From positions 1,045,469 to 1,109,468 of the forward strand of contig OY762463.1 of NCBI GenBank assembly GCA_963665815.1: DNA of 64,000 nt. The letters run 5' to 3'. Each line of letters opens with the position of its first letter. The first letter of the stretch is position 1. A program made the position numbers and the translations under genes. The notes below the pieces were generated by a model. It searched no databases and was not told the origin of the DNA. It was given only the letters and a program-made list of their open reading frames with translations. Source of the DNA: Candidatus Cloacimonadales bacterium. GTDB taxonomy: Bacteria; Cloacimonadota; Cloacimonadia; Cloacimonadales; JAIOQZ01. Below are positions 11,914 to 59,647 of this stretch, piece after piece.

Positions 11914-11930
11914 CTTTTTTATATTGAAAA

Positions 11931-12626: not shown

Positions 12627-12653
12627 AAAAAGGCCCCGAGAATTCCCAGAGCC
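12627..12653 (-). terminator. repeat copy of the same terminator (array unit 1)
   Basis: Identical hairpin followed by UUUUUGAUUU on the minus strand. Confidence 0.7.
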
Positions 12654-12813
12654 TGTAAAGTTAGTTGGATGTCAAATGCGACGAAATCCCGACCTATTTG
12701 AAAAGGTCCTTCAGCAGTTTTTCTGCTTCTTTTTCGACTTTCTTGCCAACAAAAGAAAGTCTTTTCCCTTAAATCAAAGTTGTCGCATTATCTATAGTGA
12801 TGAACATTTCAAT

Positions 12814-12842
12814 AAAAAAAGGCCCCGAGAATTCCCAGAGCC
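12814..12842 (-). terminator. repeat copy of the same terminator (array unit 2)
   Basis: Identical hairpin followed by a run of 7 U on the minus strand. Confidence 0.7.
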
Positions 12843-13005
12843 TGTAAAGTTAGTTGGATGTCAAATGCGACGAAATCTCGACCTATTTGAAAAGGTCCTT
12901 CAGCAGTTTTTCTGCTTCTTTTTCGACTTTCTTTCCGGCAAAAAGAAAGTCTTTTTACCTTTTTGGGGTAGTTGTCGCATTATCTATAGTGATGAACATT
13001 TCAAT

Positions 13006-13034
13006 AAAAAAAGGCCCCGAGAATTCCCAGAGCC
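13006..13034 (-). terminator. repeat copy of the same terminator (array unit 3)
   Basis: Identical hairpin followed by a run of 7 U on the minus strand. Confidence 0.7.
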
Positions 13035-13196
13035 TGTAAAGTTAGTTGGATGTCAAATGCGACGAAATCTCGACCTATTTGAAAAGGTCCTTCAGCAGTT
13101 TTTCTGCTTCTTTTTCGACTTTCTTTCCGGCAAAAAGAAAGTCTTTTTACCTTTTTGGGGTAGTTGTCGCATTATCTATAGTGATGAACATTTCAA

Positions 13197-13226
13197 TAAG
13201 AAAAGGCCCCGAGAATTCCCAGAGCC
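13197..13226 (-). terminator. native rho-independent terminator of gene 13267..15135
   Basis: Minus-strand RNA reads GGCUCUGGG-aauu-CUCGGGGCC, a 9-bp stem including three G-U pairs, followed by UUUUCUUAUU. On the plus strand the same positions are C-A mismatches, so the terminator is strand-specific. Confidence 0.8.
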
Positions 13227-13266
13227 TGTAAAGTTAGTTGGATGTCAAATGCGACGAAATCTCGAC

Positions 13267-15135
13267 CTATTTGAAAAGGTCTTTCAGCAGTTTCTCTGCT
13301 TCTTTTTCGACTTTCTTTCCGGCTTTATCTTTTTCCTTATCGATTTTGCCTTGAACTTCATTTTGTTTACCTTTGACCTTAGCTAATTGCTTATCGATCT
13401 TGCTTTGCATTTTTTTCATTTCAGAATCAAGCCTTGCTTTCTGTTTGTTTATCTGGTCATCAAGTTGTTTCTTGTACTTGGCAACTTCTTTATCAACCTT
13501 CTTACGCAATTCTTGTTTAGCTCGATCTACTTCTGCACTGAGTGCTTTTTTCATTTCTCTTGCAATCAGATTATCGAGATTACTATTCAAGTCGAATGAG
13601 TAATCAGAATCTTTCTGGCTGATTTTTGCATCAAAAGTAATAACATTTATTGCCTGAGTAATCCTCTTTGCAATTCTCAGGAGATGTTTGTTAAGCTTCT
13701 TTGAGTACACATCTGAAAACCTGAGTTTGTCTCCCTTAAAACCTACACTTGAAACAAAGTCACTGTTAAGAATATCAATCTCTGAGCTGAATGTTGCTTG
13801 TCCTGATTCCAGTTTTTCAGGTAACAAGACAAAATTGGAAAGTTTTGTTCCGTTAAGTGGTATTTCACTAGCAACAATTTTTACGTTCTCGTGGAATTGC
13901 TCATTTCTGTGGTCCAGAGTAGCATCTATGCTTGCTTTGAACAATCCGGCTCTGCTTCCGCTTAATTTTGCAGTAATCGGAGTATTAATTCTGTCCTGAT
14001 CAGATGAGATATTGAATATCTGTCCTTTAATTTTGAGCCCGTCACCTGCTTCACCGGAAAGAGTAATTTCTTTCAGCCAGAAGTTTGGTAATTCAGGATA
14101 TTTTTCTGCTTTGGGTTCTGCTTCTACAGCTTCAGGTTTATCCTGTTTGATTTCTCTCGACATCTGTATGTATCCTATAGCCATCATTAAACCATCTGAA
14201 AGTCTGTCTCCAAACAGCATTTTTGCAATATCTTCAACATTTGATGAAGGTAGGTTAGCAATATTCAATGCTTTGTTATAATCCGCTTTAACCCACTTAG
14301 GAACATCTTTTCTGAGACCATTAAGAAGCTTCATATCTTTAGAGAAATTCTTTTTAACCTCTTTAGCTTCTTTAAACAGTTTCTGAGATTTATCATAAGC
14401 AAATTTAGCATTATCCAGAGCTTTCAATAACTCATCAAGCTTCTTCAAATTATTAACATCTATTGCACTGATCTTTTTCTCAATTTCTTTATAATCTTTT
14501 TCATAAGTATTGTTTTTGAATTTATCATCCCAATATGCGTAACGTTCATCTGCAATTTTCTTAAGTGAATCAATTTTAGCAGGTGTCTGAAGTTCGAGAA
14601 GAGCGAATACGGAATCAACATCGATATTTGCCTTAAGTGAAGCAGGATCAAATACAGGAATCTTATCCTTTTCTTCCATGATCTTTGCTTTGATCTTTTC
14701 AGTTACCATTTTAGCTACTTTGCTCTGTCCTTTTTTCTTCTTTTTAGGATCAGGCTCAATATAACCATCTTCCGCTCTGACAGTATTCATTTTAAAGTTT
14801 ACTAACTGTACTTTATTCATGACAACTTTCTTTGCCAGCAGAGGTTTAATCTCCATATTAATTTCTGTTCGACCAAATTCAAACAGGTTTTTCTTTGTAT
14901 TGTCCTTATCAGTCATCTGGAATCTGTTCCAGGACAATGTTCCTTCGAATGGTTCAAACTTGAGACTGTCAACATTGAGTTGAGCTCCATAGATTTTGGA
15001 ACCTTTCCCTTCAATAAAATTTGTAAGTATATTATTTCTGAAGTGATAAACTCCAAATAATCCACCTGCAAAAATTATAAGAAATATAAGTAATCCAAGA
15101 AAAAACTTACCAAATTTCTTAAAGAATTTCTTCAT
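13267..15135 (-). CDS. membrane-anchored envelope protein with Lys/Glu-rich coiled-coil tail (AsmA/DUF748-like; family uncertain)
   Basis: 622-aa ORF with N-terminal TM anchor FFLGLLIFLIIFAGGLFGVY. A long mixed alpha/beta region is followed by a C-terminal coiled coil (..KQELRKKVDKEVAKYKKQLDDQINKQKARLDSEMKK..). Confidence 0.7.
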   Translation of the reverse strand: MKKFFKKFGKFFLGLLIFLIIFAGGLFGVYHFRNNILTNFIEGKGSKIYGAQLNVDSLKFEPFEGTLSWNRFQMTDKDNTKKNLFEFGRTEINMEIKPLLAKKVVMNKVQLVNFKMNTVRAEDGYIEPDPKKKKKGQSKVAKMVTEKIKAKIMEEKDKIPVFDPASLKANIDVDSVFALLELQTPAKIDSLKKIADERYAYWDDKFKNNTYEKDYKEIEKKISAIDVNNLKKLDELLKALDNAKFAYDKSQKLFKEAKEVKKNFSKDMKLLNGLRKDVPKWVKADYNKALNIANLPSSNVEDIAKMLFGDRLSDGLMMAIGYIQMSREIKQDKPEAVEAEPKAEKYPELPNFWLKEITLSGEAGDGLKIKGQIFNISSDQDRINTPITAKLSGSRAGLFKASIDATLDHRNEQFHENVKIVASEIPLNGTKLSNFVLLPEKLESGQATFSSEIDILNSDFVSSVGFKGDKLRFSDVYSKKLNKHLLRIAKRITQAINVITFDAKISQKDSDYSFDLNSNLDNLIAREMKKALSAEVDRAKQELRKKVDKEVAKYKKQLDDQINKQKARLDSEMKKMQSKIDKQLAKVKGKQNEVQGKIDKEKDKAGKKVEKEAEKLLKDLFK

Positions 15136-20160: not shown

Positions 20161-20607
20161 ATGATAGCACCCATAATACGTGTATCAACATATATACATT
20201 TAATCGATAATACATTAGAAAGATTTAATATTTTTGATAAAAGTATCACTAATTCTCTGGAAATGTACTCAAAAAGTGAAATAGAATTGTTAGGTTGCTC
20301 CAGCAATGATATGACAAATCAATTAGCATATAGATTTCTCAGAAATGGATTTTCAGGTGGAGAATCCATAGAACCTATTATTGGACTTTATTTCAGATTG
20401 AATACTATCAGGGAAAAGCTTGAGAAAATATCTCCAAATCATTTTGTTCTGATGCATGATAAAAAAGGGAAAGCATTTAACAATCCACTGGATTTTCTTT
20501 TTTTTGGATTGGAATTCAATGTTAACTCATGCATTAACCTCACTCATATATCTCCGGGACCTGTTGACTGCAAAGAAAATGGAAGAGTTACAAAGGGAAT
20601 GTTTTAG
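20161..20607 (+). CDS. hypothetical protein (paralog of 19268..19714)
   Basis: The start is moved to the ATG at 20161 (AGAGGA RBS upstream), because this gives an N-terminus homologous to the paralog. 148 aa. Confidence 0.6.
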   Translation: MIAPIIRVSTYIHLIDNTLERFNIFDKSITNSLEMYSKSEIELLGCSSNDMTNQLAYRFLRNGFSGGESIEPIIGLYFRLNTIREKLEKISPNHFVLMHDKKGKAFNNPLDFLFFGLEFNVNSCINLTHISPGPVDCKENGRVTKGMF

Positions 20608-21212
20608 AGATATGTATCTTCTTCTTCCTCTTCATCATCTTCACCAGTATAGACATCCCATCCAAACATTGTATCTAATTGATAAAGCATTATCTCACTT
20701 ATAGTAAATGACACTGCACAAAGTAGAACTACAACAAAACCAAACTTAAACAATCCTGTAAACTCAATAGCAGACAACTCACTGTCCTGATAGTATTGAA
20801 TCAAACCAAATACAAGACAATACAAAGCTCCATTAACAACTGCAAAAGAAAGATTTCTTATTGTGTTTTGATTGATAAAATCCCATATATACATTATTGT
20901 AACAACGAATAAAAGCATATATACAGGATAGGCGATTATAAAAGCAAATGAATTACCAATCCTCAAATTAAGGAATACAGAAAATAGTGTTGAAAGAACA
21001 ACAGCAGCAATAAAACCGATAGCACGGCTGAAATAAACATAACAAAAAAGGATAAGCCCACAGATAACGGGAAGAATTAGAAACTGCATTCCCGATGAAT
21101 CATTCAAGTTAAAAACATCTATCTTCATTATCATTCCCACAATTGCCGTTATGAACACATTGATCAATGTTATAAGAAATATTGCTGTTATAATAAAAGA
21201 TGGTTTACGCAT
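20604..21212 (-). CDS. multi-pass membrane protein with acidic C-terminal tail
   Basis: 202 aa with about six hydrophobic helices. It ends in ..TGEDDEEEEEDTYL. Confidence 0.65.
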   Translation of the reverse strand: MRKPSFIITAIFLITLINVFITAIVGMIMKIDVFNLNDSSGMQFLILPVICGLILFCYVYFSRAIGFIAAVVLSTLFSVFLNLRIGNSFAFIIAYPVYMLLFVVTIMYIWDFINQNTIRNLSFAVVNGALYCLVFGLIQYYQDSELSAIEFTGLFKFGFVVVLLCAVSFTISEIMLYQLDTMFGWDVYTGEDDEEEEEDTYL

Positions 21213-21228
21213 TGTGTCTCCTTGTCTC

Positions 21229-23037
21229 CTAATTAAAGAAATACCATTTCAGTCTTACAAAAAAGTGAACCGGCATAAGATCAGTTGTATATATTTCTGT
21301 TTCATTTGTAATATTCCTGAATTCTCCTGTAGCACTGAAGTTCTTGGTTATGTCTAATCTTACAAAAGCATTCAAGTAATGAGAATTATATAATTCCGAG
21401 TTCTTATAGAATATTGTATTATCATCATATTGATATCTTATTCCACCGGTAATTCTATTATTATGTTTAAGTAAATAGCTTAAACTAATTTCGCTGTCTG
21501 TATATAATTTTTCAGATTCATACTTGATTCCAATGTTCGAGTTCAAGACAAATTGCCTGTATTTCAAGGCTTTCTTCACATCTGCTGACAGGAAAGGTGA
21601 TTCTACTCTCAGATCAAGTTCATCAGGTGTACTTACATATTTCAAAGATAATTCTTCTACAGAATATCCCGCCTTTATTTCTGCTTCTGCACATTGCTTC
21701 ATCCTGAGTTGAAATCCGTAATTTATCTTATCGAACTGTAAGTTTTCATATGAAAGTGATAACATGTCCCTTACATCTCTATTAACAAAATCAGTATATA
21801 CTCCATAGGAGGCGATATCGATATTATCAGCCATTACTTCGCCGGAAGCCCATAATGATTTCTCACCAATAACAGCATTACTCTGAGCAGATAATAAATC
21901 ATTTTTATATGAGTAATCAGCTATTAACCCAGTGAATTCTCTTGTACTGTTAACAGAAAATTGCCAGAAAGCCTTTAAATTATGATTGCCTGGATTGAAT
22001 TCCCTGCCAATTGAAAACAAATTATCATAAACTTCAGTTGAATCAATCTTATCAGAATATAACTTATAATTGAAATCAATTAAATCAGATCTGTACATTA
22101 CAGTATACTCATGAGTATAATAACTCTCATTCTTAACATTTGTAATTGGATTTCTGAGAACTTTTTTCTCAGGAACTTTTTGTCTACTGTTGATATATCT
22201 GGTTTCAATTTCACCATATGATAGAGGAGCTTTTAGCTGTAGATGAATTGATCCGTTAGCTTCATTTATAACCTGAAGTTGATCATCATATAACTCACCA
22301 TTAAATCCAACATAGTCAAATCGAAGCTGAATATCCTTTCCGAAAATTTTATCCTTACCTACATCCAGTACAATGAAGTCATAATTATAATCGCCGGTTG
22401 CCATATAAGCTTTTACCATCATTGGCTCAAGTTCATAATATCTGCTATTCAGTATCATTGAGTTTTCAGTTTCACTGGTATTGTAAAACCTGTTCATCGT
22501 CTGGTAGTAAAGAGGCAATGAGACTTTATCAGAAACAAATACCATGCCATCTCTTCTTATCAATTTATCAAAATCATGATACCCGTCATAATGAAAACCT
22601 TCAGATATATTATACTTCCTGTGAGTATTATCATCTATATCCATAACACTGTCGATCAAAGCATAATAATCAATTTTTTCAACTTCTATTATTACAGAAT
22701 CCTGAATCGACTTCTTCAGAGACTTTTTTAGAACATAAACAGCGGCATATGGATTGATTTTACTTTTACCTGCATCCAGTAGAACTTTATTCTTGTATCT
22801 GAATATGTATTTTTTAACAATACTTCTCACTGAAGGATTCAGATAGTGAACAGCAATAGAATCAATATCATAGTTGACAATATAAACATCTGCTTTGACA
22901 GTCAATGAATCTCTTACAAGAAGTGAATCCTGCCCGAATACAGGCACATCATACTTCATGAAGTCACCTTCAGTAACAACTGAAAGCAGTGTACTCACTA
23001 ACAGGTAAGTAAATAGTAAAATTATTCCACGTTTCAT
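21229..23037 (-). CDS. hypothetical secreted / outer-membrane beta-barrel-like protein
   Basis: 602 aa with signal peptide MKRGIILLFTYLLVSTLLS. The composition is Y/N/S-rich beta-strand-like, with an aromatic-rich C-terminus (..RLKWYFFN). It lies 16 nt upstream of the membrane protein gene. Confidence 0.6.
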   Translation of the reverse strand: MKRGIILLFTYLLVSTLLSVVTEGDFMKYDVPVFGQDSLLVRDSLTVKADVYIVNYDIDSIAVHYLNPSVRSIVKKYIFRYKNKVLLDAGKSKINPYAAVYVLKKSLKKSIQDSVIIEVEKIDYYALIDSVMDIDDNTHRKYNISEGFHYDGYHDFDKLIRRDGMVFVSDKVSLPLYYQTMNRFYNTSETENSMILNSRYYELEPMMVKAYMATGDYNYDFIVLDVGKDKIFGKDIQLRFDYVGFNGELYDDQLQVINEANGSIHLQLKAPLSYGEIETRYINSRQKVPEKKVLRNPITNVKNESYYTHEYTVMYRSDLIDFNYKLYSDKIDSTEVYDNLFSIGREFNPGNHNLKAFWQFSVNSTREFTGLIADYSYKNDLLSAQSNAVIGEKSLWASGEVMADNIDIASYGVYTDFVNRDVRDMLSLSYENLQFDKINYGFQLRMKQCAEAEIKAGYSVEELSLKYVSTPDELDLRVESPFLSADVKKALKYRQFVLNSNIGIKYESEKLYTDSEISLSYLLKHNNRITGGIRYQYDDNTIFYKNSELYNSHYLNAFVRLDITKNFSATGEFRNITNETEIYTTDLMPVHFFVRLKWYFFN

Positions 23038-27960: not shown

Positions 27961-30642
27961 ATGAGAAGATATTTATCTTTTCTTGTGGTATCAATATTTC
28001 TGTTTGTTTATAGTATGCTGACTGCTAATCCTGTATCTTTAAAGAAAGCGGAAAATACAGCAGCTAACTTCTTGAAATTCAAGAAAATTGATGCCTCAAT
28101 AATGAAAAACGAAGTAATCGTAAATAAGGCGGAAAAGATTGCTTACGTTTTCCATACAGATCCTGAAGGATTTGTAATTGTATCAGCTGATGATCAGCTG
28201 ACACCAATTTATGCTTTTTCTACCAACAGCACATTTTCACAATCAAACGACAATGCTATGCATTTTATTAACACCGACCTTACAGAAAGACTCAGAGTAA
28301 AAGAATTTTTCTCAGAAGAACTTAAAGAAAAGAACGCTGAAGACTGGAATAATCTGAATGAGCAGGTTCCACACTTAGACATCCCACAAGGCTGGAGTGT
28401 TTACCCACCTGAAGGACTGACCAGTACAGACGGATGGATTACATCCAGATGGGGACAGGGAGATCCATTAAACATGTATTGCCCTATAGATCCAGGATCA
28501 GGAAACAGATCTGTAGTCGGATGTGTTGCGACATCTTTTGCACAGCTTGTGAATTATCACAAATACTTTGTACTACCTAACTTTACTTCTTCGGACAATT
28601 ATGTTTCACAATATACAAATCCGGCAATTGATATTGACAATGATGCACAAACCTATGATTTCCCTACATTCAGCCAATTGAATCAGCTTCTTGTGCCTAT
28701 CCAGAATGCATATCTGACTCACTCAACACCGGATACCGATGATAAAGCTGCCCTTAATGCCGCTTGTGGATTTCTGGTTGAAATGAGTTATTCAGAAGCC
28801 GGTTCAGGATCAAATACACATCAAATAGCTGATGCGATAGTCAACAGACTGGGATATACTTCTGCATCAACTATGTCTACATGGCATACAGACCATGATG
28901 TTTTCTATGCCAATCTGATTAATGATATGCAGAATGCCCGTCCCGGTGTTTTGTCAATATTCAAATCTGTTGGGTATGATGGACATGCAATCAATGTTGA
29001 CGGTTATAGAAGCGACCTTGATCATTATCACCTGAATTTTGGCTGGAATGGAAATTCTGATGGTTGGTATTCATTACCTGCCGGAATGCCGGAAAACTAT
29101 GACAATGTCAGCAGTGCTGTATATAATGTTGAAGGTGGAGACCTTCCAATGTATCTTTCAGGAAGCGTTTCCGTACCTGAAGGCAGTCCTCGATATGTTG
29201 ACCTGACTTTCGCCGGTCCTACAGTATTCGATATCACGATTGATAACGAGCAAGGAGATTTCCAACTTTACAATATCCCACCCGGAAACTATACAATTAT
29301 CGGTACAAAAAGTAATCCTGACGGTTTTACATATACCGGAACTGTGTACATCAATGAAAACACTTCAACAATAGATATTCAGATGAGTTACAGTGGAATA
29401 ATAAGAGGTAGTTTTTCAGGTCCTGCCGATAATGCAGAAAAGATTATTGAAATTTTCGAAAACGATGAACTGATAAAAAGTGCTTATTCAAATTCTGACA
29501 GCTTTGAAATGTATGCCCCCCTTCCGGGTAACTACACAATAAAAGCCAGATCCGGACGTAATTACTTCTATGAATCAGAACTGACTATTGTATCCGGAGA
29601 ACAGGTTCAAAACCTGACTTTGGAACACAATCCCGGTAATATCAGTATAGGAAATCACTCTCGACCATCTTCTGGTTTATTTCAGGAAATAGCACTTGAA
29701 AGAATGAATTTTGCAGTTAAAGTTGAAAATGAACTGCTGAGTGATAATGTGGATAATTATCTGATAGGAATTCGATTCAGAACACCTTTTGCCAGTGGTC
29801 AGGGAGAATTAAAACCTGCTATATGGAAAGGTTCTTCACTTGTATCTCAGACCGTATTGGAAAACTACAACAGTGATGAATGGGTAGAAGTTTATTTCGA
29901 CAGTTTTGTTAAGATTGACACGGAAAATGACTTTTACTTTGGATATACTGTCGATGCTCCTGAAGGATTTAAAAAAGCATGGTTAGACTCCGGTTCTCAT
30001 AGTAATGGTTTTTATCTTTCAAATCTATCTGCAAACTGGAATGAATACAACATGGAGAACAATCCGCATCTATGCATGCAGGGCTTAGTCAGTACAGCCA
30101 GTTATGGCACAATAACAGGGCATATCACAAATAATATGTCATCTGAGCAAACCCCTATTGTGATCAAAGCCGGTAACAACTACCACTACGCTATGACAAA
30201 CAGTGATTTCAGTATGGATGCCAATGATGGGTATCTTGATATTTTTGCTTTTAATTCAATGTATATCTCTACTGAACAACAAATACTAGTTGAAAACGCT
30301 ACTACAACGAATCCTGTAAACATTGTTCTGCAAGTGTCCGGCTCCGAAGAAGATGTTCAAAGAGCTAATCCTCTTACAGCATCTAATACTCCAAACCCTT
30401 TCAACCCTGAAACAATAATAAACTTCAGTCTTCCTGAAAAGGGCAATATTGAAGTTGCCGTTTATAATGTTAAAGGTCAAAAAATTGCAACTCTTGCTAA
30501 TGAACACTACAATGCCGGGGAACACAACTTGACATGGCATGGAAAGGACAGTACCGGAAAGGCTGTTGGAAGCGGGATATATTTCTATCGTATTCAAACA
30601 GCGAAAGATGCTTTCATCGGAAAAATGGTACTCATAAAATAA
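27961..30642 (+). CDS. secreted C10-family (streptopain-like) cysteine peptidase with Ig-like/carboxypeptidase-regulatory-like repeats and a T9SS-type C-terminal domain
   Basis: The start is placed at the ATG at 27961 (GGGAGG RBS); a signal peptide follows. The N-terminal segment is Spi-like (pro-peptide/inhibitor). Catalytic-Cys context: NRSVVGCVATSFAQLVNYHKY. His context: GHAINVDGY..HLNFGWNGNSDGWY. C-terminus: NTPNPFNPETIINFSLPEKGNIEVAVYNVKGQKI..GEHNLTWHGKDSTGKAVGSGIYFY. Confidence 0.85.
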   Translation: MRRYLSFLVVSIFLFVYSMLTANPVSLKKAENTAANFLKFKKIDASIMKNEVIVNKAEKIAYVFHTDPEGFVIVSADDQLTPIYAFSTNSTFSQSNDNAMHFINTDLTERLRVKEFFSEELKEKNAEDWNNLNEQVPHLDIPQGWSVYPPEGLTSTDGWITSRWGQGDPLNMYCPIDPGSGNRSVVGCVATSFAQLVNYHKYFVLPNFTSSDNYVSQYTNPAIDIDNDAQTYDFPTFSQLNQLLVPIQNAYLTHSTPDTDDKAALNAACGFLVEMSYSEAGSGSNTHQIADAIVNRLGYTSASTMSTWHTDHDVFYANLINDMQNARPGVLSIFKSVGYDGHAINVDGYRSDLDHYHLNFGWNGNSDGWYSLPAGMPENYDNVSSAVYNVEGGDLPMYLSGSVSVPEGSPRYVDLTFAGPTVFDITIDNEQGDFQLYNIPPGNYTIIGTKSNPDGFTYTGTVYINENTSTIDIQMSYSGIIRGSFSGPADNAEKIIEIFENDELIKSAYSNSDSFEMYAPLPGNYTIKARSGRNYFYESELTIVSGEQVQNLTLEHNPGNISIGNHSRPSSGLFQEIALERMNFAVKVENELLSDNVDNYLIGIRFRTPFASGQGELKPAIWKGSSLVSQTVLENYNSDEWVEVYFDSFVKIDTENDFYFGYTVDAPEGFKKAWLDSGSHSNGFYLSNLSANWNEYNMENNPHLCMQGLVSTASYGTITGHITNNMSSEQTPIVIKAGNNYHYAMTNSDFSMDANDGYLDIFAFNSMYISTEQQILVENATTTNPVNIVLQVSGSEEDVQRANPLTASNTPNPFNPETIINFSLPEKGNIEVAVYNVKGQKIATLANEHYNAGEHNLTWHGKDSTGKAVGSGIYFYRIQTAKDAFIGKMVLIK

Positions 30643-34323: not shown

Positions 34324-34530
34324 ATGTTAGAAGGAATAATCATATTTTTAATTGTTATCGCTGCAGTATTCTTCCTTGCAAAAAGCATTAAAAAATCCAG
34401 GCGGGATGAATTCAAATGTTCATCATGTGTAACCTCAAAAACGTGTTCTCATGAGAATTGCAGTTACTGTCCGAGTGCCAAAAAAAATTTATCATTAAAG
34501 TTAGATGAGACTAATTATAAGGAGATATAA
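34324..34530 (+). CDS. FeoB-associated Cys-rich small membrane protein
   Basis: 68 aa with one N-terminal TM helix (IIIFLIVIAAVFFLA) followed by a Cys-rich tail (CSSCVTSKTCSHENCSYC). Its stop overlaps the next ATG (TAATG). Confidence 0.7.
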   Translation: MLEGIIIFLIVIAAVFFLAKSIKKSRRDEFKCSSCVTSKTCSHENCSYCPSAKKNLSLKLDETNYKEI

Positions 34531-35548: not shown

Positions 35549-36421
35549 ATGAAATATATACTTGCTATAATTTTAATCAGTTCTTTTCTTTATGCTGAGA
35601 CTCTTATACTATCCCCTACAGATGACATGTATACAGATGCTGACCATCCTGGGACACAGCCTGATTTAGCTCAGCTCTGGACTGCTGACTTCCAGGCGAG
35701 TGGGCACTTTGAAAGAATCATGATGAAGTTTGACTTATCCCAGTTAACCGGATTAGACATCACATCAGCTACTCTTCACCTTACACGTTTGTACAGTTGT
35801 CCAAGCGGTGGTACTACTGCATCCAAATTCTACCCGATTACAGAAAGCTGGAATGAAGCGACCTGGGATCATACACAACACATTCAATATGATGCACAAG
35901 CAGCCATGAATTACGTTTTCACAGGTCCGGGTGGAAATGTAAACCATAACTTTGAAGTAGATGTTCTGCAACTGGTAACGCTCTGGCAAACCTGTATGTT
36001 TGCAAATCATGGATTTGTAATTCAGGCTAACAGTAATCAAAAATTCAGTAAGTTCTATTCTAAGGATCATTCTAATGCCTCTTACAGACCTTCCCTTGAA
36101 ATTGAATATACTGTAACAGAAAACGGTGAACAATGCAACGATTATGCAGTTGCTGAACTTTCAAACTACCCAAATCCATTTAACCCTGAAACAAATATTT
36201 CTTTCAGTCTTCCCCGGAACTCAAATGTTGAACTTGAAGTTTACAACATTATAGGCAAAAAAGTGAAGACTCTTGCATCAGAACATATGACGCAGGGGGA
36301 GCACATCATAAAGTGGAATGGAAAAGACAGTAATGGTAATCCGGTCAGCAGCGGCATATACTTATGTAGACTTAAAGCATCCGGTATGGAAAAAGTACAC
36401 AGGATCATTTTACTGAAATAG
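35549..36421 (+). CDS. secreted protein with T9SS-type C-terminal sorting domain (N-terminal domain unassigned)
   Basis: 290 aa with a signal peptide. C-terminus: NYPNPFNPETNISFSLPRNSNVELEVYNIIGKKV..GEHIIKWNGKDSNGNPVSSGIYLCR. Confidence 0.7.
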   Translation: MKYILAIILISSFLYAETLILSPTDDMYTDADHPGTQPDLAQLWTADFQASGHFERIMMKFDLSQLTGLDITSATLHLTRLYSCPSGGTTASKFYPITESWNEATWDHTQHIQYDAQAAMNYVFTGPGGNVNHNFEVDVLQLVTLWQTCMFANHGFVIQANSNQKFSKFYSKDHSNASYRPSLEIEYTVTENGEQCNDYAVAELSNYPNPFNPETNISFSLPRNSNVELEVYNIIGKKVKTLASEHMTQGEHIIKWNGKDSNGNPVSSGIYLCRLKASGMEKVHRIILLK

Positions 36422-36958: not shown

Positions 36959-37057
36959 GTGGAACTGCAGCACTGCTCTTATCCAGAATATTACTTTACA
37001 AAATGACTTTCATAAAATCTTATGATCTTAAATTAATCTGGGAGTTAATATATTGCC

Positions 37058-37780
37058 ATGAAAACTTGTACAGGGATCAAACAGTTTACGAGCTTGAAGA
37101 AAATACTTATTCTTACACTATTCATTATAACCGGTTTATGCAGCCTGAACAGCTATAATTTTTCGGACAAACTTTCTTTTTATGCAGAGTTTGATTTTGC
37201 TGAGAAAACAAGGTTTGATGAGGTTAAAAACAAACTTGATGGTCAATCAGAAGCGATTGATGAAGAGATGAAAAATGATTCTCCTCAAATTGCGTATGGC
37301 ATGAACATTGTTTTGAATAATAAATACAATGCTGATGTCAGTTATCTACAATCAAACATGACCTATAAATACAAAAGTGGCAGATATGTAGATGAATACA
37401 AACTTGAAAACAGCATAATTCATCCAGTACTGTATCATGCGATTAAGAAAAACAGCACATATTCGTTCAATATTGGAATTGGTTTACTATGCAATAACAC
37501 CAGACTTATAATTGAAAGCAAAAGAGATGCTGTAATATTGAGTAAGGAAAAAAGCAAAAGAGAAAGAATATATACCCCAACACTTAATGCTAAAATGCAG
37601 AAAATGCTGCCAAATAATTTCCTGAACATAAATTTCTTTTTTGGAGCTTCCTGTTCAATCCTGCTTAATACTGAACAGATTCTGAATTTCTCTGATGAAA
37701 ATCCCCAGACATACGATTATGACTTTAAATTCAAGAATCCTTTTATTTCTGCAGGTCTTAATCTGGGCTTTTACTTATAG
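37058..37780 (+). CDS. hypothetical outer-membrane beta-barrel-like protein
   Basis: 240 aa with a signal-like N-terminus (ILILTLFIITGLCSLNS) and a C-terminal ..AGLNLGFYL. No family recognised. Confidence 0.55.
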   Translation: MKTCTGIKQFTSLKKILILTLFIITGLCSLNSYNFSDKLSFYAEFDFAEKTRFDEVKNKLDGQSEAIDEEMKNDSPQIAYGMNIVLNNKYNADVSYLQSNMTYKYKSGRYVDEYKLENSIIHPVLYHAIKKNSTYSFNIGIGLLCNNTRLIIESKRDAVILSKEKSKRERIYTPTLNAKMQKMLPNNFLNINFFFGASCSILLNTEQILNFSDENPQTYDYDFKFKNPFISAGLNLGFYL

Positions 37781-37787
37781 AAAAATC

Positions 37788-38459
37788 CTACTCCCCATAC
37801 TGAATATCTATAGTCATACTTTCAGTACTGGTGTAATTAACTTCTTCTGATATTACTTGGCCATGGAGTTCGGAAAAGGCATAAATATTGAATTTTCCAG
37901 TTAAATCACCATGCTCCATATCACTTCTCATTGGATTGTTCAGCATAATCTGAGAATCAGAGATTGAGAACTTCCCGTTTTCATCAGTTTTGTCATAGTA
38001 TGTGAATTGAGTGAAGTTGTCAAAACCAACGGTACAATATATAGCAGGCACTGCAATTGTTAATGTATCACTACTTTCAACAGATCTCATGTTAACCTTA
38101 TAGAAATCTGTCTTTACATACTTATCGCTTTCATTGGTTCCATCCCAGCTCACAGCGTGATACCCGGCCTCCTGATTTTCGCTTAAAAGCACCTTAACAG
38201 TATCAGAAATATTCTCTGTTGATATCCAGATTTTCGTATATCCAGCATCATGGAGGGAATAGTGGATGCTTGTAGTTGGTCTCTCTGGGGCATCAGTATT
38301 TTCATAAACGTAATCTATCCCGACATATGCATTTGTAACAGGTTGTCCGTCTGCATCAGTAATCTGACCTTTAACGTATTTAGTATCACTGCTTGTTGAA
38401 TTGCAACTGCAAAGCAATAAAGAACAAAGTATAATCAATATCATCTGTGAGTATCTCAT
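37788..38459 (-). CDS. lipoprotein, tandem paralog A (CarboxypepD_reg-like + FlgD-Ig-like)
   Basis: 223 aa with lipobox LLLCSC. VKGQITDADGQPVTNAYVGI (carboxypeptidase-regulatory-like). GYHAVSWDGTNESDKYV (FlgD-Ig-like). Confidence 0.8.
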   Translation of the reverse strand: MRYSQMILIILCSLLLCSCNSTSSDTKYVKGQITDADGQPVTNAYVGIDYVYENTDAPERPTTSIHYSLHDAGYTKIWISTENISDTVKVLLSENQEAGYHAVSWDGTNESDKYVKTDFYKVNMRSVESSDTLTIAVPAIYCTVGFDNFTQFTYYDKTDENGKFSISDSQIMLNNPMRSDMEHGDLTGKFNIYAFSELHGQVISEEVNYTSTESMTIDIQYGE

Positions 38460-38483
38460 TTATTCCCCTTAAAGTATAATCTT

Positions 38484-39161
38484 TTAATCCTCTTCCCCAT
38501 ACTGAATATCTATAGTCATACTTTCAGTACTGGTGTAATTAACTTCTTCTGATATTACTTGGCCATGGAGTTCGGAAAAGGCATAAATATTGAATTTTCC
38601 AGTTAAATTACCATGCTCCATATCATCTCGCATTGAACTGTTCAGCATAATCTGAGAGTCAGGGATTGAGAACTTCCCGTTTTCATCAGTTTTGTCATAA
38701 TATGTAAATTGAGTAAAATTTTCATTGTTTACATTGCAGTATATGGCTGGTACGGCAATAATAAGTGTATCACTTGTTTCATCTGATCTCATATTAAACT
38801 TATAGAATCCTGTTTTAACATAGTACCCGTCATCATTAGTTGCATCCCATGTTACATAATGATAACCGACATCCATGTTTTCATTAAGAAGCACTTTTAC
38901 AGTATCAGAAATATTTTCTTTTGATATCCAGATCAGTGTTTGTCCTGCTTCCTTTATAGAGAAAGATATATTTGTTGTGGGTCTTCCCAAGTCGTAATCA
39001 GTTTCATATCTATAGTCTATTCCCACATAAGCATTAGCAACAGGCTGTCCGTTTGCATCAGTAATCTGACCTTTAACGTATTTAGTATCACTGCTTGTTG
39101 AATTGCAACTGCAAAGCAATAAAGAACAAAGTATAATCAATATCATCTGTGAGTATCTCAT
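38484..39161 (-). CDS. lipoprotein, tandem paralog B
   Basis: 225 aa. The signal peptide is identical to A. The middle differs (..DYRYETDYDLGRPTTNISFSIKEAGQTLIWISK..NENMDVGYHYVTWDATNDDGYYV..). Confidence 0.8.
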   Translation of the reverse strand: MRYSQMILIILCSLLLCSCNSTSSDTKYVKGQITDANGQPVANAYVGIDYRYETDYDLGRPTTNISFSIKEAGQTLIWISKENISDTVKVLLNENMDVGYHYVTWDATNDDGYYVKTGFYKFNMRSDETSDTLIIAVPAIYCNVNNENFTQFTYYDKTDENGKFSIPDSQIMLNSSMRDDMEHGNLTGKFNIYAFSELHGQVISEEVNYTSTESMTIDIQYGEED

Positions 39162-39185
39162 TTATTCCCCTTAAAGTATAATCTT

Positions 39186-39863
39186 TTAATCCTCTTCCCC
39201 ATACTGAATATCTATAGTCATACTTTCAGTACTGGTGTAATTAACTTCTTCTGATATTACTTGGCCATGGAGTTCGGAAAAGGCATAAATATTGAATTTT
39301 CCAGTTAAATTACCATGCTCCATATCATCTCGCATTGAACTGTTCAGCATAATCTGAGAGTCAGGGATTGAGAACTTCCCGTTTTCATCAGTTTTGTCAT
39401 AATATGTAAATTGAGTAAAATTTTCATTGTTTACATTGCAGTATATGGCTGGTACGGCAATAACAAGTGTATCACTTGATTCATCTGATCTCATATTAAA
39501 CTTATAGAATCCTGTTTTAACATAGTACCCGTCATCATTAGTTGCATCCCATGTTACATAATGATAACCGACATCCATGTTTTCATTAAGAAGCACCTTA
39601 ACAGTATCAGAAATATTCTCTGTTGATATCCAGATTTTTGTATATCCAGCATCATGGAGGGAATAGTGGATGCTTGTAGTTGGTCTCTCTTGGGCATCAG
39701 TATTTTCATAAACGTAATCTATCCCGACATATGCATTTGTAACAGGTTGTCCGTCTGCATCAGTAATCTGACCTTTAACGTATTTAGTATCACTTTGAGT
39801 AAGAAAGCAGCTGCAGAGAGTGAAACATGCTAATATTGATAATAGTAAAAGCGAAAATCTCAT
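39186..39863 (-). CDS. lipoprotein, tandem paralog C (chimera of A-like and B-like segments)
   Basis: 225 aa with its own signal peptide (MRFSLLLLSILACFTLCSC). Residues 24-92 match A with 1 difference. Residues 93-225 match B with 2 differences. Confidence 0.8.
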   Translation of the reverse strand: MRFSLLLLSILACFTLCSCFLTQSDTKYVKGQITDADGQPVTNAYVGIDYVYENTDAQERPTTSIHYSLHDAGYTKIWISTENISDTVKVLLNENMDVGYHYVTWDATNDDGYYVKTGFYKFNMRSDESSDTLVIAVPAIYCNVNNENFTQFTYYDKTDENGKFSIPDSQIMLNSSMRDDMEHGNLTGKFNIYAFSELHGQVISEEVNYTSTESMTIDIQYGEED

Positions 39864-39922
39864 TTTTCCTCCGAGTAATAATATAGAATCGAATCTGTTG
39901 TATTTTGCAAATGTGTGTCAAT

Positions 39923-39952
39923 AAAAAAAAGGCTGATGAAAATTCATCAGCC
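39923..39952 (-). terminator. rho-independent terminator after the tRNA
   Basis: Minus strand reads GGCTGATGAA-tt-TTCATCAGCC followed by a run of 8 T. Confidence 0.85.
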
Positions 39953-39960
39953 ATTTATAA

Positions 39961-40036
39961 TGGTGGGCCCAAGAGGAGTCGAACCTCTGACCGTCCGGTT
40001 ATGAGCCGGAAGCTCTACCAACTGAGCTATAGGCCC
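39961..40036 (-). tRNA. tRNA with CAT anticodon (elongator Met, or Ile2 if C34 is lysidinylated); CCA encoded
   Basis: GGGCCTATAGCTCAGTTGGTAGAGCTTCCGGCTCATAACCGGACGGTCAGAGGTTCGACTCCTCTTGGGCCCACCA folds as a cloverleaf. Acceptor GGGCCTA/TGGGCCC. D arm GCTC..GAGC. Anticodon stem TCCGG/CCGGA with loop CTCATAA. T arm AGAGG-TTCGACT-CCTCT. The G1-C72 pair excludes an initiator tRNA. Confidence 0.95.
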
Positions 40037-40114
40037 TGTTATGATTAACAGTAACGGATGTTATAAACTGAAAATCAGACTTTCTTGTCAAGCCGAAATT
40101 TCCAATTTTAACAA

Positions 40115-41863
40115 TTATTTAACATTGAAGTTTTCGTATAACTCCATCAGTTTAGTACTACGGGTTGGATGTCGAAGTTTTTTCAATGCTTTATCTTCTA
40201 TCTGTCTGATTCTCTCACGAGTCACATTAAAGATGTTTCCAACTTCCTCAAGAGTTCTGTGATAACCATCATCAATACCAAATCTTAGACGAATAACACG
40301 TTCCTCCCTTACAGTAAGTGAATTCAGAACATCATTAACCTGTTTCTTCAGCAGAGTACGTTCTGCCATTCTCTCTGGTGAAATTGTACTTTTATCTTCA
40401 ATGAAATCCCCAAGTAAACTGTCTTCACTGTCATTACCAATAGGTTTATCAAGTGAAACAGGTTCTTTAGATATAGATAGAATACTTTTGATCTTTTCAA
40501 CTGGCAGATCAAGTGCATCTGCGAGTTCTTCAGGATAAGGGTCTCTTCCCAGTTTCTGAGTAAGCCGTCTGCTCATCCTGTTAACTTTATTAATAGATTC
40601 TATCATGTGAACAGGAACACGAATTGTACGTGCCTGATCAGCAATAGCTCTTGTAATAGCCTGACGAATCCACCAGGTTGCATAAGTACTGAATTTGTAT
40701 CCTTTTTTGTAATCGTATTTATCAACAGCTTTCATCAAACCGGTATTCCCTTCCTGAATAAGATCAAGAAAATCCAGTCCCCTGTTGTTGTAACGTTTAG
40801 CAATACTGATTACAAGTCGTACGTTTGCTTCGATCATTTCGTTCTTGGCAGTTTCTTTCATTTTTTCGCCGCGTTCGATTTCCTTCATCAGGAAAATCAT
40901 TTCTTCTCCGGTCATACGGGTCTCAATTTCAACTCGACGAATTTTTCTGCGTGCATTTTTAATTTTTCTGAGAGTTTCAACAAAAATTGTAGGATCCATT
41001 CCTGTTTCTTTTTCAACTTCAGCAAAATCTTCTTCTGATTTCTTTGCTTTCCTGCCAAGAGAACAGATTTCTTCCAGATTAAACTTCTTTATTCTGGACA
41101 ATCCGCTAATTGTTTTATTACTTTCTTTGATACGATCAACAAGACTTTTTATTCTATATACAAGTCTCTTTATGAACTTATCATGAAAAGGAACATCTGA
41201 GAAAATTTCAATAAGCTTCTTTCTCTTTTCCTCGATAACCTCCATAATATTCTGATCAATGAAATTACCATAATCATCATATTCGGAATTATCTATAATA
41301 TCTCCTACTTCATCATAAATCGGCTCAGATAGTTTAATTGCAATCTGAAACTTCTCAATCAATTTTGAATCTTGTGATTTGTCGATGTAACTGCCAAATT
41401 CGATCCTGAATAGTTGATCCAGCCGGATTCTTTTTTCCTTGAACCTGTGAAGAAAATTGTGCATTTCCCGAAGCGAACTACCAGACATAAACACATAACG
41501 GTTTATCCATTTCTGTCCGGACTCAATCTTCTTGGCAATCCTGATTTCTCCATCCCTGTCAAGCAGTGGGACACGTCCCATTTCCTTGAGATACATACGT
41601 ACGGGATCATCGTAATAACGTCTGTTTTTGAATTTCTTAGCCTGAGGATTTTTCTTGACAGAAACTGATTTCTTCGTGACTTTTTTTTGTGTTTCATCAA
41701 TGATTTCAATACCGGTTTCGGTTAGGTCAGATATCAGATCATCAATTTTGTCCAGAAATAGTGGGCTATTCGGAAGAATCTCGTTTATCTGCTTGAATGT
41801 CAGATATTCATTCTTCTTCCCTAATTCGATTAAGTTTTCCAAGCATTCTTTGTAACTTAACAT
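40115..41863 (-). CDS. rpoD: RNA polymerase primary sigma factor RpoD
   Basis: 582 aa. Region 2 [32 protein letters not shown]. Region 4 [28 protein letters not shown]. Confidence 0.95.
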
Positions 41864-56297: not shown

Positions 56298-57950
56298 CTA
56301 TTTTAAAAGAACACTTTTCTTTACAATAGATTTACATCCGGGTTTATGCATTCGGATAAAATACACACCCGTTGATACTTTCTTACCTGAATCACTATCT
56401 CCTTCCCACATAACATTATGTTTACCTGAAGGAAACTCCTCTTTAACAATGCTCTTTACGTGCTGTCCCTTTACATTATAAACATCAACTTCCACAATTG
56501 ATTTTTCACTCAAATCAAAACTAATATTAGTTCTCGGGTTGAATGGATTAGGATACAAACTCATTGAAGTAACACGACTGATTTCGTTTTGACCTGAATC
56601 TGTTACTCCTTCTCTAATTTTCCCTACAAAACAATCTCTGTTTCCGTTAGATGTTACTGATAAATTACCAAATACAGCTGTTGAAGAAAATCCTCCTGCT
56701 ATAAATATATTTCCATCATCGGATATGTACATAGCTGTTCCCCTGTCCCAACCAATAGAACCTGCTTCTTCAACCCATTGCCAGTTGCCTGAAGAATCTA
56801 ATTTGAGAACAAAAACATCTCTTCCTCCGAAGCCGTTAAGATTATCATTACCCATTACAGCCACACCGTCAAAATAACCTGTAGCATAAATATCTCCATT
56901 GGAACCTAAAAAAATATCTGTTGCAGAATCCCATTCTGAGGAGCCACCATGTGCTACCCAATTCCAGTTTCCTGAATCATTTATACTGGCAATATACAGA
57001 TCTCTGTTCCCGTTTCCTGTCACCTGAAGACTGTCAAAAAAAGCTATATCAGTAAAATGTCCACTGACTACAGCTCCTGAATCAGATGGAATAATCTGAT
57101 ATGCCTCATCAAAATTATTGCCACCAAATCCATTTACCCATATAAAATCACCTGAGTCATTCATCTCGGCAACAAATCCATCAGTATAACCATCACTTGT
57201 CAGTGTATCTGAGCCTAATACTGCATTTCCTGTAAACATACCGCAAAGTAAAACCCTGTTATTCTCAGCCAGTTTAATATCTATCCCGGCATCTGCACCG
57301 CTTCCTCCTGCTTTTTTTACAAGGTTCCAATCCCTGAGTGAATTTAATCTGGCAACAAGAATATCAGTGCTACCGGCACAAAGCAGAGTATCGGTACTGA
57401 TCAGTATTGTATCACTGAATGATCCTGCTATATATACATTATTTGTACTATCAATAGAAATACTGTTTCCGATATCCCAACCTGAACTACCGATTTCTTC
57501 GGACCAGAGCCAGTTCCCGTCAGAATCAAGCTTTGACACAAAAATGTCTCCATAACCGGAACTCACAAGTGAGTCCTGACCGAAAAAAGCAGTACCTTCA
57601 AAAACACCTGTAATCATTATACAATTATCAGCAGTAACATCTATATCATTTCCTTCATCAGTAAAAGAAGTTCCTCCCGCACTTGTACACCACAACCAGT
57701 TTCCTTGAGAATCCATCTTAGCAACAAAAATATCTCTACCACCGAGACTTGCCACATACTCATTGCCAAACCATTGACTGCCTTCAAAATATCCAGTAAC
57801 ATACAGATTGCCGTTATCATCTCCAACAATACCGTTAAGCTGCATATCCATTGCGCCACCACCTGTAGCAACCCAATCCCAGACCGGAGTCTGAGCATTA
57901 ACAAAACTTGCTAAAAAAAACATAAATGCTATTGTTGCGGATATTTTCAT
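56298..57950 (-). CDS. secreted SBBP-type beta-propeller-repeat protein with T9SS-type C-terminal domain
   Basis: The start is placed at the ATG at 57950 (GGAGAG RBS), which gives signal peptide MKISATIAFMFFLASFVNA. It has many repeats of the form G..D.G..I..D..GN.Y(V/I)(T/A)G.F. C-terminus: LYPNPFNPRTNISFDLSEKSIVEVDVYNVKGQHV..GKHNVMWEGDSDSGKKVSTGVYFIR. Confidence 0.8.
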   Translation of the reverse strand: MKISATIAFMFFLASFVNAQTPVWDWVATGGGAMDMQLNGIVGDDNGNLYVTGYFEGSQWFGNEYVASLGGRDIFVAKMDSQGNWLWCTSAGGTSFTDEGNDIDVTADNCIMITGVFEGTAFFGQDSLVSSGYGDIFVSKLDSDGNWLWSEEIGSSGWDIGNSISIDSTNNVYIAGSFSDTILISTDTLLCAGSTDILVARLNSLRDWNLVKKAGGSGADAGIDIKLAENNRVLLCGMFTGNAVLGSDTLTSDGYTDGFVAEMNDSGDFIWVNGFGGNNFDEAYQIIPSDSGAVVSGHFTDIAFFDSLQVTGNGNRDLYIASINDSGNWNWVAHGGSSEWDSATDIFLGSNGDIYATGYFDGVAVMGNDNLNGFGGRDVFVLKLDSSGNWQWVEEAGSIGWDRGTAMYISDDGNIFIAGGFSSTAVFGNLSVTSNGNRDCFVGKIREGVTDSGQNEISRVTSMSLYPNPFNPRTNISFDLSEKSIVEVDVYNVKGQHVKSIVKEEFPSGKHNVMWEGDSDSGKKVSTGVYFIRMHKPGCKSIVKKSVLLK

Positions 57951-58076: not shown

Positions 58077-59441
58077 TTACCATTTAACTTCTGTACCAAA
58101 CCACATTACTGTAGCTGTGTCTTCACCAAACATAAAAAGATGTGATACGTCGTTATCGTCTGTATAGTTGAAGCCATAATCTTTGTTAGGCATAAGCATA
58201 CCAAGTCCTGCGTAAAATTTTGCATTCTTATGAACTTTGTATGATCCGTACAGATTAAACTCATTCCACATGTTTTCACCGGATACTTCTTTTGTACCTA
58301 TCTTGACATCAGTAGAGTTGTCATTAAACATCCAGAAATTAAAACCAACATTCATTTTTTTACACATTTCAGGAGTGAAATCTGTTCCAAAATTCACCAT
58401 CATCATACCATGATCAACATCGGCTTTAAAACCATTATCTGTAAGTTTCCAGAAAATATTGACAGCTTGATATCCATGTTCAACCAATCCCATTCCAACA
58501 CCTGTGAATGCTTCATTTTCATCATCAGATCCTGCATCATCACCTGATCTCATGAATAATTCAGCTCTTGGCATAAGTGTACCAAATCCAAGATCAAACT
58601 CAGCATTAAGACCAACATCAAGAAGCATACCGGAATAATCTATTCCTGTTGCATCGTTTGCACCAGTCTGCATTGCAAATTCAAGATAAGGTTTTAGCAT
58701 TCCGTCCATAAGTGTTACATCACCTCTGGCACCAAAAACATTAAATGCATTACATTCTGTTTCGTTTTTGCTAAGTCCATTATCATCAAAAGATTCAACA
58801 TTTTCACCTTTTCTGAAGAAATAAGCCTGAACATCTGCCATGTCGGCTATTTTATTCATTCCACCAATCAAACCAAAAATTTTAGCTGCATGATCTTCTT
58901 CAATATTTGTGTATTCAGCATCTTCATACTCAGCCAAATTAGCAGTTTGTAAATCAACCCATAAGTTATCTCTTTTAAACATAAGAGCAGCACCACTAAT
59001 ATAATCAGCAGGTCCGAAGATGTTTCCACCACCATAATTCCATAATCTTTGTCCAAGATGAGCGGAAAGTCCTTCAAAAAACAGGTTATCATACTGGACG
59101 TAAGCTTCTTGAAGTTTAAGTCTGGTATCTTTAATCTTTTGATCGCTATCCATATTAAATTTGATCCACTTGCTACTGGCTTCATCATCACTTTCTAAAC
59201 GAGAGTGAATTTTTACCATAATATTTTCATTAATGTGAGTGTTAAAGGATAGATCCAATCTACCTTGAGTATAGGTTGTTTTGTCATTATTGGCGTTATC
59301 TTTGAAATCTGTCCAGTCTGCCAAATTGTTTTCATAGTCCATTTCAAGAAGAAATCTTCCATGAATATCGACTTTTGGATACTCGCCTGCGAATAGAGCT
59401 GTTGCCATTACAACAATAAGTAAAATAGTAATTTTTCTCAT
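58077..59441 (-). CDS. outer-membrane porin-like beta-barrel protein
   Basis: The start is placed at the ATG at 59441 (GGAGG and 4 nt upstream), which gives signal peptide MRKITILLIVVMATALFA. Composition is beta-strand-like, with an aromatic terminus ..WFGTEVKW. Confidence 0.7.
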   Translation of the reverse strand: MRKITILLIVVMATALFAGEYPKVDIHGRFLLEMDYENNLADWTDFKDNANNDKTTYTQGRLDLSFNTHINENIMVKIHSRLESDDEASSKWIKFNMDSDQKIKDTRLKLQEAYVQYDNLFFEGLSAHLGQRLWNYGGGNIFGPADYISGAALMFKRDNLWVDLQTANLAEYEDAEYTNIEEDHAAKIFGLIGGMNKIADMADVQAYFFRKGENVESFDDNGLSKNETECNAFNVFGARGDVTLMDGMLKPYLEFAMQTGANDATGIDYSGMLLDVGLNAEFDLGFGTLMPRAELFMRSGDDAGSDDENEAFTGVGMGLVEHGYQAVNIFWKLTDNGFKADVDHGMMMVNFGTDFTPEMCKKMNVGFNFWMFNDNSTDVKIGTKEVSGENMWNEFNLYGSYKVHKNAKFYAGLGMLMPNKDYGFNYTDDNDVSHLFMFGEDTATVMWFGTEVKW

Positions 59442-59647
59442 ACTACCTCCAGTATTTTTTTTTGATTCATTGAATCTTAATAAGTACACAACTTATTTTA
59501 CTATTTAAATAACAGGAAAAATATATTATTCATGTTGAGACTTTGTCAAGATATTAGTTAAATTAAATACTTGGAAATTTTTACGTGCGAAAATTGAATA
59601 TATCCGCAAAAACATTTCAGTAATCTATATCATTATATACCAAGACA

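Follow-up and report, generated by a model that had tools for sequence, protein, structure and literature searches.

A mosaic array of three tandem lipoprotein genes in a Cloacimonadales genome, probably reshaped by homologous recombination between copies

Introduction

How do three adjacent genes come to be near-identical to one another, each pair over a different segment? The question is raised by a small array of lipoprotein genes in a Candidatus Cloacimonadales bacterium, a member of the Cloacimonadota, which to our knowledge is a phylum without cultured representatives. The array lies in a stretch of 64,000 nt of contig OY762463.1 (assembly GCA_963665815.1), referred to here as the window. 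The original prediction, made from the letters of the window, described genes A, B and C as tandem paralogs, with C a clean chimera of the other two. It took this for the footprint of recent gene conversion or unequal crossing-over, and considered the arrangement compatible with combinatorial variation of an exposed protein. Our analysis points to a lineage-specific tandem expansion of one small lipoprotein gene that was, very probably, reshaped by general (RecA-type) homologous recombination between the copies.

Results

The three genes form a three-way mosaic

Three intact lipoprotein open reading frames (ORFs) were found where they had been predicted, all on the minus strand: C (39186..39863, 225 amino acids), B (38484..39161, 225 amino acids) and A (37788..38459, 223 amino acids). 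They are transcribed in that order, C from 39863 to 39186, B from 39161 to 38484 and A from 38459 to 37788, and a repeat finder gave the array a period of 702 nt. The spacers, C-B at 39162..39185 and B-A at 38460..38483 on the same strand, are identical, as had been noticed. Both are 24 nt long (AAGATTATACTTTAAGGGGAATAA), with a GGGG ribosome-binding site and without a terminator.

In a 678-column DNA alignment of the three genes, which provides the gene positions used here, A and B are 100% identical over positions 1-108, comprising the signal peptide and the next 12 codons; in the signal peptide alone (positions 1-72), C is only 54% identical to them. A tract of 39 nt at positions 70-108 is identical in all three genes. 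Through the N segment that follows (positions 109-270), C matches A at 160 of 162 nt, compared with ~69% for B, and the single amino-acid difference from A is P58Q. Over the middle and the start of the C-terminal third (positions 271-553), C matches B at 281 of 283 nt, compared with ~76% for A, and differs from B in two residues, T129S and I134V; C and B are the same from position 554 onward. These counts of one and two amino-acid differences are those originally given. The C-terminal tract at positions 554-668 (115 nt; 37792..37906, 38494..38608 and 39196..39310 on the minus strand) holds no difference among the three copies. B and C also share the last 10 nt and the 24-nt spacer, and A terminates two codons earlier. 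The resulting pattern is a three-way mosaic, as the segment of near-identity changes with the pair of genes compared. The near-identity of A and B had been placed in the last ~70 residues, a description that holds with five differences in the last 73; strict identity is limited to the last 39.

The 153 variable sites of the alignment fall into 11 runs, whereas 100,000 permutations averaged 99.8 runs and never gave fewer than 74 (p<1e-5). Overall, the copies differ from each other by 14-19% at the protein level, and four private substitutions are found across ~700 nt of near-identical sequence. The longest shared unit does not respect the gene boundary. The stretch 39054..39593 covers the last 408 nt of C, the spacer and the first 108 nt of B, and 38352..38891 covers the equivalent parts of B and A. 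The two stretches, both on the minus strand, differ at just 2 of 540 nt.

Two breakpoint intervals can be placed in C, both on the minus strand. Interval 1 coincides with the 39-nt tract that is identical in all copies (39756..39794 in C, 39054..39092 in B and 38352..38390 in A), making it a candidate recombination substrate. Interval 2, where C changes from A-like to B-like, is bracketed by the informative sites 267 and 274 and so spans gene positions 268-273 (39591..39596), in agreement with the switch that had been located at 39594-39597. It is adjoined by identity runs of 13 and 17 nt that are common to the two sequence types described below.

Related genomes carry a single gene at the same site

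Close relatives were sought in 5.8 billion protein clusters. The search returned five proteins: A, B and C themselves, from the single contig, one protein from a Candidatus Cloacimonadales metagenome-assembled genome (MAG; GCA_942492065.1) and one from an ENA metagenome contig. The MAG ortholog (L001:8001-8681) and the ENA-contig ortholog (L003:8001-8672) are single-copy genes at the syntenic site. In these relatives, the genes for MutS2, DnaG and RpoD and tRNA-Met precede the lipoprotein gene, which is followed by convergent genes for an outer-membrane protein (OMP)-like protein of 232-234 amino acids, an FMN-binding protein, a protein tailed with a type IX secretion system (T9SS) domain and a porin-like protein. 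The same three genes fixed in related genomes had been named as an observation that would speak against recent exchange; the relatives carry one gene.

By BLASTN, the upstream flank of the array is collinear into C and the downstream flank is collinear into A, as expected for tandem expansion in situ. Upstream of C, the sequence with tRNA-Met, its terminator and a GGAGG ribosome-binding site has its ortholog in the single-copy loci, which lack any counterpart of the 24-nt spacer and of the A/B-type signal peptide. An exact-protein look-up for C and B gave no match, two metagenome scans for other arrays or population variants, one with peptide patterns and one with a 26-nt degenerate DNA pattern, came back empty, and a genome scan for relatives of the array returned the known single-copy MAG only. 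Three distant family members on contigs of 28-31 kb are likewise all single-copy, in unrelated contexts. In a further distant member, P0085 (437 amino acids), two complete two-module units are fused in frame behind a single lipobox, which indicates that tandem duplication has occurred elsewhere in this lipoprotein family.

The array combines two sequence types, and B is a hybrid too

With the two single-copy genes as outgroups, each segment of the array could be assigned to one of two sequence types. The ortholog-like (O) type comprises the signal peptide of C, the N segment of B and the middle of B and C; it is 85-95% identical to the outgroups at the nucleotide level, with a synonymous divergence (dS) from the orthologs of 0.35-0.47 for the N and middle segments; for the short C signal peptide the value is 0.11-0.29. 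The divergent (D) type comprises the whole of A, the signal peptide of A and B, the N segment of A and C, and the C-terminal third (positions 451-672) of all three genes; its identity to the outgroups is 55-80%, and its dS ranges from 1.1 to saturation. Between the types, identity is 69% in the variable N segment and 76% in the variable middle, and positions 229-263 are semi-conserved.

Taking signal peptide, N segment, middle and C-terminal third in turn, A is D-type from end to end, B is D, O, O and D, and C is O, D, O and D. No pure O-type gene is left in the array. The D-type patch in C covers gene positions 109-267 (39597..39755, minus strand) and is 98.8% identical to 38193..38351 in A. 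Judged against the outgroups, B is itself hybrid: a D-type 5′ end precedes an ortholog-like body. The proposal of a clean chimera, with C made up of A and B, is thus borne out for the matching tracts and has to be revised in its polarity: the outgroups make B a hybrid as well, and C the positional ancestral copy, patched from A.

Gene A ends differently from its neighbors. Both A and the ENA ortholog end in ...YGE*, with TAG at a codon that is CAG or GAG elsewhere (A end at 37788..37796, B end at 38484..38498), and B, C and the MAG ortholog have two additional codons at the end (EED or EQE). The stop in A and the ENA ortholog is a nonsense change at the same codon, either shared or convergent.

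The shared tracts are recent and the two types are old

Inside the shared tracts dS is 0-0.03, compared with saturation outside them. Protein-level selection cannot explain such identity, which bespeaks recent exchange, so that the footprint of recent homologous exchange among tandem lipoprotein paralogs is supported. The 115-nt tract at positions 554-668, being D-type relative to the orthologs in every copy, indicates a very recent homogenization. At positions 451-553, 10 sites separate A from B and C, and both versions are far from the orthologs, pointing to an older round. The exchange has therefore been repeated.

The D and O types themselves differ at saturated dS, and the ratio of nonsynonymous to synonymous divergence (dN/dS) is 0.14 for the N segment and 0.08 for the middle. 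The types are therefore old and subject to purifying selection, with no rapid diversification. Flanking housekeeping genes, compared between the window and the MAG, give a yardstick for species divergence: rpoD has a dS of 0.57 and dnaG one of 1.05, while saturation is reached in mutS2 and the porin-like gene. On this scale, the O-type segments are placed at the conserved end of the range of the flanking genes, and the D-type is as old as the species split or older. The O-type dS in the N and middle segments is near that of rpoD and lower than that of dnaG, mutS2 and the porin-like gene. High expression with codon bias may account for this low value, or there may have been relatively recent gene exchange between lineages. 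At 39-40% GC, the D segments do not leave the coding range of the genome, in which 17% of coding windows are equally high, and thus show no compositional sign of a foreign origin for the D-type.

No machinery for programmed variation was found in the window

Pfam scans of the 37 ORFs of the 64-kb window revealed no reverse transcriptase, integrase, invertase or transposase. Inverted repeats in the window are solely 20-35 nt long, 71-80% complementary and kilobases apart. Both results agree with the earlier statement that recombinases, reverse transcriptases and invertible-promoter repeats are not visible nearby.

Several candidate systems were considered and rejected. A diversity-generating retroelement is contradicted by the missing reverse transcriptase and by a substitution spectrum that is generic, dominated by transitions and free of adenine bias. 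An invertible promoter or shufflon would require a recombinase and credible inverted repeats, and the window has neither. Phase variation through simple repeats was dismissed since Tandem Repeats Finder detects none in 37000..40200. A silent-cassette architecture does not fit A, B and C, which are complete ORFs; each has its own start codon, ribosome-binding site and lipobox. Positive selection on the differences between D and O was rejected on the basis of the dN/dS values given above. With no dedicated machinery and no positive selection, programmed variation is unsupported. The suggestion of combinatorial variation consequently finds no positive support, given old types under purifying selection, full-length genes and an array known from one genome.

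The genes encode a predicted lipoprotein with two beta-sandwich modules

The signal peptides of the array, MRYSQMILIILCSLLLCS and MRFSLLLLSILACFTLCS, each followed by cysteine, end in a lipobox. This cysteine (Cys19) is invariant in a 20-member family alignment, all members of which carry the motif [LVIFM]-x-[SGA]-C, and A, B and C are predicted to be signal peptidase II lipoproteins. The family-invariant residues C19, G31, L91, G99, W105, Y120 and G162 are kept in all three.

The domain labels first attached to these proteins, CarboxypepD_reg-like and FlgD-Ig-like, turn out to be weak. FlgD_ig (PF13860; 79 positions) is at its Pfam cut-off of 27.0 bits, with scores of 27.1 for B, 27.0 for C and 26.4 for A that cover just profile positions 35-76. 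CarboxypepD_reg (PF13620; 82 residues) is below its cut-off of 32.3 bits in all three proteins; its scores of 21.9-25.4 bits come from profile positions 2-23 only, ~20 residues forming one strand-turn motif, in a region that is modeled as a beta-sandwich. NCBIfam gave no match above cut-off. An exhaustive profile search found 1,348 matches at E<1e-3, including many lipoproteins of 220-245 amino acids with the same full-length architecture, and matched the middle module also to FlgD-Ig/T9SS C-terminal domain (CTD)-like repeats of giant proteins.

An AlphaFold model built from 12 sequences (mean confidence, pLDDT, of 74) shows a signal helix followed by two beta-sandwich modules; a model from 5 sequences, with a pLDDT of 47, was not used. 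Foldseek searches of the PDB with this structure returned generic Ig-like/FlgD matches only, the best being FlgD Ig-like domains at E 6e-4, with TM-scores of just 0.29-0.47. Within the window, the middle module (residues ~61-130) has weak tblastn similarity to T9SS C-terminal sorting/FlgD-Ig domains at 36185..36403, 30406..30600 and 56361..56534, in three secreted, T9SS-tailed neighbors (a Disaggr_repeat protein, a C10 peptidase and an SBBP-repeat protein), so that an internal CTD-like beta-sandwich appears to be part of the lipoprotein.

The neighborhood of the array

Upstream of the array, on the same minus strand, is a tRNA-Met (CAU) gene at 39961..40036, which is kept in the single-copy relatives, followed by its intrinsic terminator at 39931..39952, 5′ of the array. 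Given this terminator, the promoter of the array must lie between it and 39864. Because no terminator was found between the copies, A, B and C probably form one co-transcribed operon downstream of the tRNA-Met terminator. Between rpoD and tRNA-Met, ~80 nt of non-coding sequence including a TTGACA box are 100% identical in the window and the MAG (39953..40114 compared with L001:7752-7930), and the adjoining rpoD coding sequence is 90.8% identical. This difference suggests that the tRNA-Met promoter or leader is strongly constrained.

Downstream, the convergent gene for the OMP beta-barrel-like protein (37058..37780, plus strand, 240 amino acids) is conserved in the relatives. It is 44% identical to its MAG counterpart at the nucleotide level, with a nonsynonymous divergence (dN) of 0.86, and 65% identical to that of the ENA contig, while the genes around it share 78-91% identity with the MAG. 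Either allele replacement or very fast evolution of an outer-membrane protein seems to have taken place beside the array. Another difference in the otherwise conserved synteny is an indel: the MAG has extra DUF2325, flavodoxin and DUF2023 genes between the porin-like gene and feoB (L001:12084-14041), which are absent in the window (~34430..34490) and in the ENA contig. Elsewhere in the window, four consecutive ORFs of 267-316 amino acids at 9126..13386 (plus strand) have no Pfam match at E<=1e-5, and the same is true of ORFs in 20604..23037, 58077..59489 and 62808..63896, all on the minus strand.

Discussion

A proposed history of expansion and exchange

The arrangement of the two types can be derived in four steps. 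The starting point would be an older two-gene array with the order O, spacer, D, in which the downstream D copy had its own ribosome-binding-site spacer and signal peptide. The 3′ third would then have been homogenized to the D-type, in an older round at positions 451-553 and in a recent one at positions 554-668. Misaligned sister chromosomes could recently have undergone an unequal crossover within the 39-nt tract that is common to both types, producing the order C (O), spacer, B (D-type 5′ part, O-type 3′ part), spacer, A (D), making the middle gene B and duplicating the spacer. Lastly, a recent conversion tract of ~160-200 nt would have copied the N segment of A into C, leaving the D-type patch that is seen there. 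A crossover inside the gene explains both the duplicated spacer and the 540-nt unit with its 3′ end, spacer and next 5′ end. The mosaic itself is in all likelihood a by-product of tandem homology, that is, of concerted evolution together with domain shuffling, and not the work of a dedicated variation machine.

Several points weigh against this account. The array is found in one genome only, placing ongoing exchange and copy-number variation beyond observation. The order and number of the events follow from parsimony, and a duplication followed by two conversions fits equally well. The D-type could have originated by an ancient duplication that was lost in both relatives or by import from an unsampled lineage. 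Finally, breakpoint 2 consists of 6 nt of identity flanked by a 17-nt run, which is short for a crossover and acceptable as the end of a conversion tract.

Alternative explanations

The import of the D-type deserves consideration in its own right. In this alternative, homologous recombination or illegitimate insertion would have brought in a divergent allele of the gene, from an unsampled, more distant Cloacimonadales lineage, beside the resident copy, and the two would subsequently have recombined. Such an import would substitute only for the first of the four steps and leave the later recombination unaffected. It would account for the saturated synonymous divergence between D and O, compared with a dS of only 0.35-0.47 between the O-type and its orthologs, and for the lack of a D-type copy in either sampled relative among the 5.8 billion protein clusters. 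However, no D-type donor appeared in any database searched, the D segments have an unexceptional GC content, and no integrase or mobile-element remnants lie in the window. The ribosome-binding-site context of the junctions also resembles the native upstream region, as duplication in situ predicts, and we regard a foreign origin as unlikely. Far less probable still is an assembly artefact, in which strain variants of a one- or two-copy locus were stacked into a false triple array. The source is a metagenome-type assembly, the A, B and C proteins are each known from one contig only, and identical tracts of 115-400 nt are repeats able to confuse assemblers. Yet the source contig of 3.96 Mb implies long-read contiguity, the array is far from the ends of the window, and its ORFs are in frame. 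Moreover, the exactly identical 24-nt junctions, with their ribosome-binding site and distinct signal peptide, are absent in single-copy loci, and the copies are well separated at the protein level, each with private substitutions.

A further alternative is that the locus is selected for combinatorial variation, with the shuffling of signal-peptide, N and middle modules between co-expressed copies diversifying an exposed lipoprotein that might serve, for example, as a phage receptor or be recognized by predators or other community members. We consider this improbable. It is in keeping with module boundaries that fall on conserved tracts, which are potential recombination sites, and with N-segment differences located in the loop region where family members vary most and have the most gaps. 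The OMP-like gene next door is also unusually divergent between relatives, and three of the four private substitutions in the recent tracts are non-synonymous, a number far too small for a test. On the other hand, the alleles are old and under purifying selection, there are two alleles per module and three genes only, and no expression site with silent cassettes exists, every copy having a ribosome-binding site and lipobox. The window is without a recombinase, reverse transcriptase or invertible element, the relatives and distant family members are single-copy, and surface exposure is an assumption, as a lipobox is all that the proteins display. In this reading, the array would work like the lpl cluster of Staphylococcus aureus or like surface-lipoprotein variation in Bacteroidota. 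An outside chance, of the same order, is that of a minimal RecA-driven module-shuffling locus, in which conserved internal tracts act as designated crossover points and the N and middle modules of a co-expressed cell-surface lipoprotein are re-assorted. In that event, an uncultured anaerobic-digester bacterium might escape phage adsorption in this way, and the array would be a Cloacimonadota counterpart of staphylococcal lpl that originated independently in an unrelated protein family.

Comparison with known systems

Exchange between neighboring copies, the explanation we favor, has well-described precedents. tufA and tufB of Salmonella, and babA/babB and sabA/sabB of Helicobacter pylori, are paralogs under concerted evolution or interlocus gene conversion. 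The likeness to the array would lie in RecA-dependent non-reciprocal exchange, identical tracts and chimeric genes for outer-membrane or surface proteins, all without dedicated machinery. Those paralogs are usually dispersed, in contrast to the adjacent copies of the array, and in H. pylori the chimeras alter adhesin expression under host selection. In Neisseria pilE/pilS, Borrelia vlsE and Treponema tprK, one expressed locus is supplied by many promoterless partial donors, with high switching, strong diversifying selection and, often, cis-acting elements. Segmental gene conversion gives mosaic surface-protein genes in these systems as well. The array, by contrast, has low dN/dS, no more than two alleles per module and three genes that are all complete and probably co-transcribed. 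Diversity-generating retroelements resemble the array in that localized variability is possible in a ligand-binding or surface protein, and differ in requiring what the window does not have, a reverse transcriptase, a pair of template and variable repeats and adenine-specific substitutions.

The closest parallel is the lpl cluster of the S. aureus nuSa-alpha island, where recombination within the ORF, at a conserved tract, re-assorts the variable parts on its 5′ and 3′ sides, where apparent duplications and conversions have been attributed to unequal crossing-over, and where the conserved unit runs from the 3′ region across the intergenic spacer into the 5′ region of the following ORF (Tsuru and Kobayashi, 2008; PMC2568036). 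The array likewise contains same-strand tandem lipoprotein paralogs with a conserved internal tract flanked by variable regions, and a unit that spans the gene boundary, the 540-nt repeat. In both cases unequal crossing-over and apparent conversion would account for the patterns. The proteins, however, are non-homologous: the two-beta-sandwich lipoprotein of the array has no Lpl/DUF576 match in Pfam or NCBIfam. While lpl clusters have 5-10 copies that were compared over many strains, the array has three copies and is known from one genome. It is also off any genomic island, and its host is a diderm environmental member of the Cloacimonadales, not a Gram-positive pathogen. The array thus appears to resemble lpl in mechanism and not in family membership.

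Implications

The array is an instance of concerted evolution by interlocus gene conversion, a known mechanism, and does not constitute a new variation system. It is an unusually clean, small and fully polarized example of how tandem paralogs evolve, as the single-copy outgroups allow each block to be assigned to the ortholog-like or the divergent type. The copied unit crosses a gene boundary and does not coincide with an ORF, and the array could serve as a teaching or benchmark case for tools that detect recombination. It also calls for caution in the annotation and phylogeny of lipoprotein families in MAGs, since whole-gene trees of A, B and C are meaningless when the genes are mosaic. If alternative mosaics appeared in population data, the array would be a first example of surface-protein shuffling in the Cloacimonadota.

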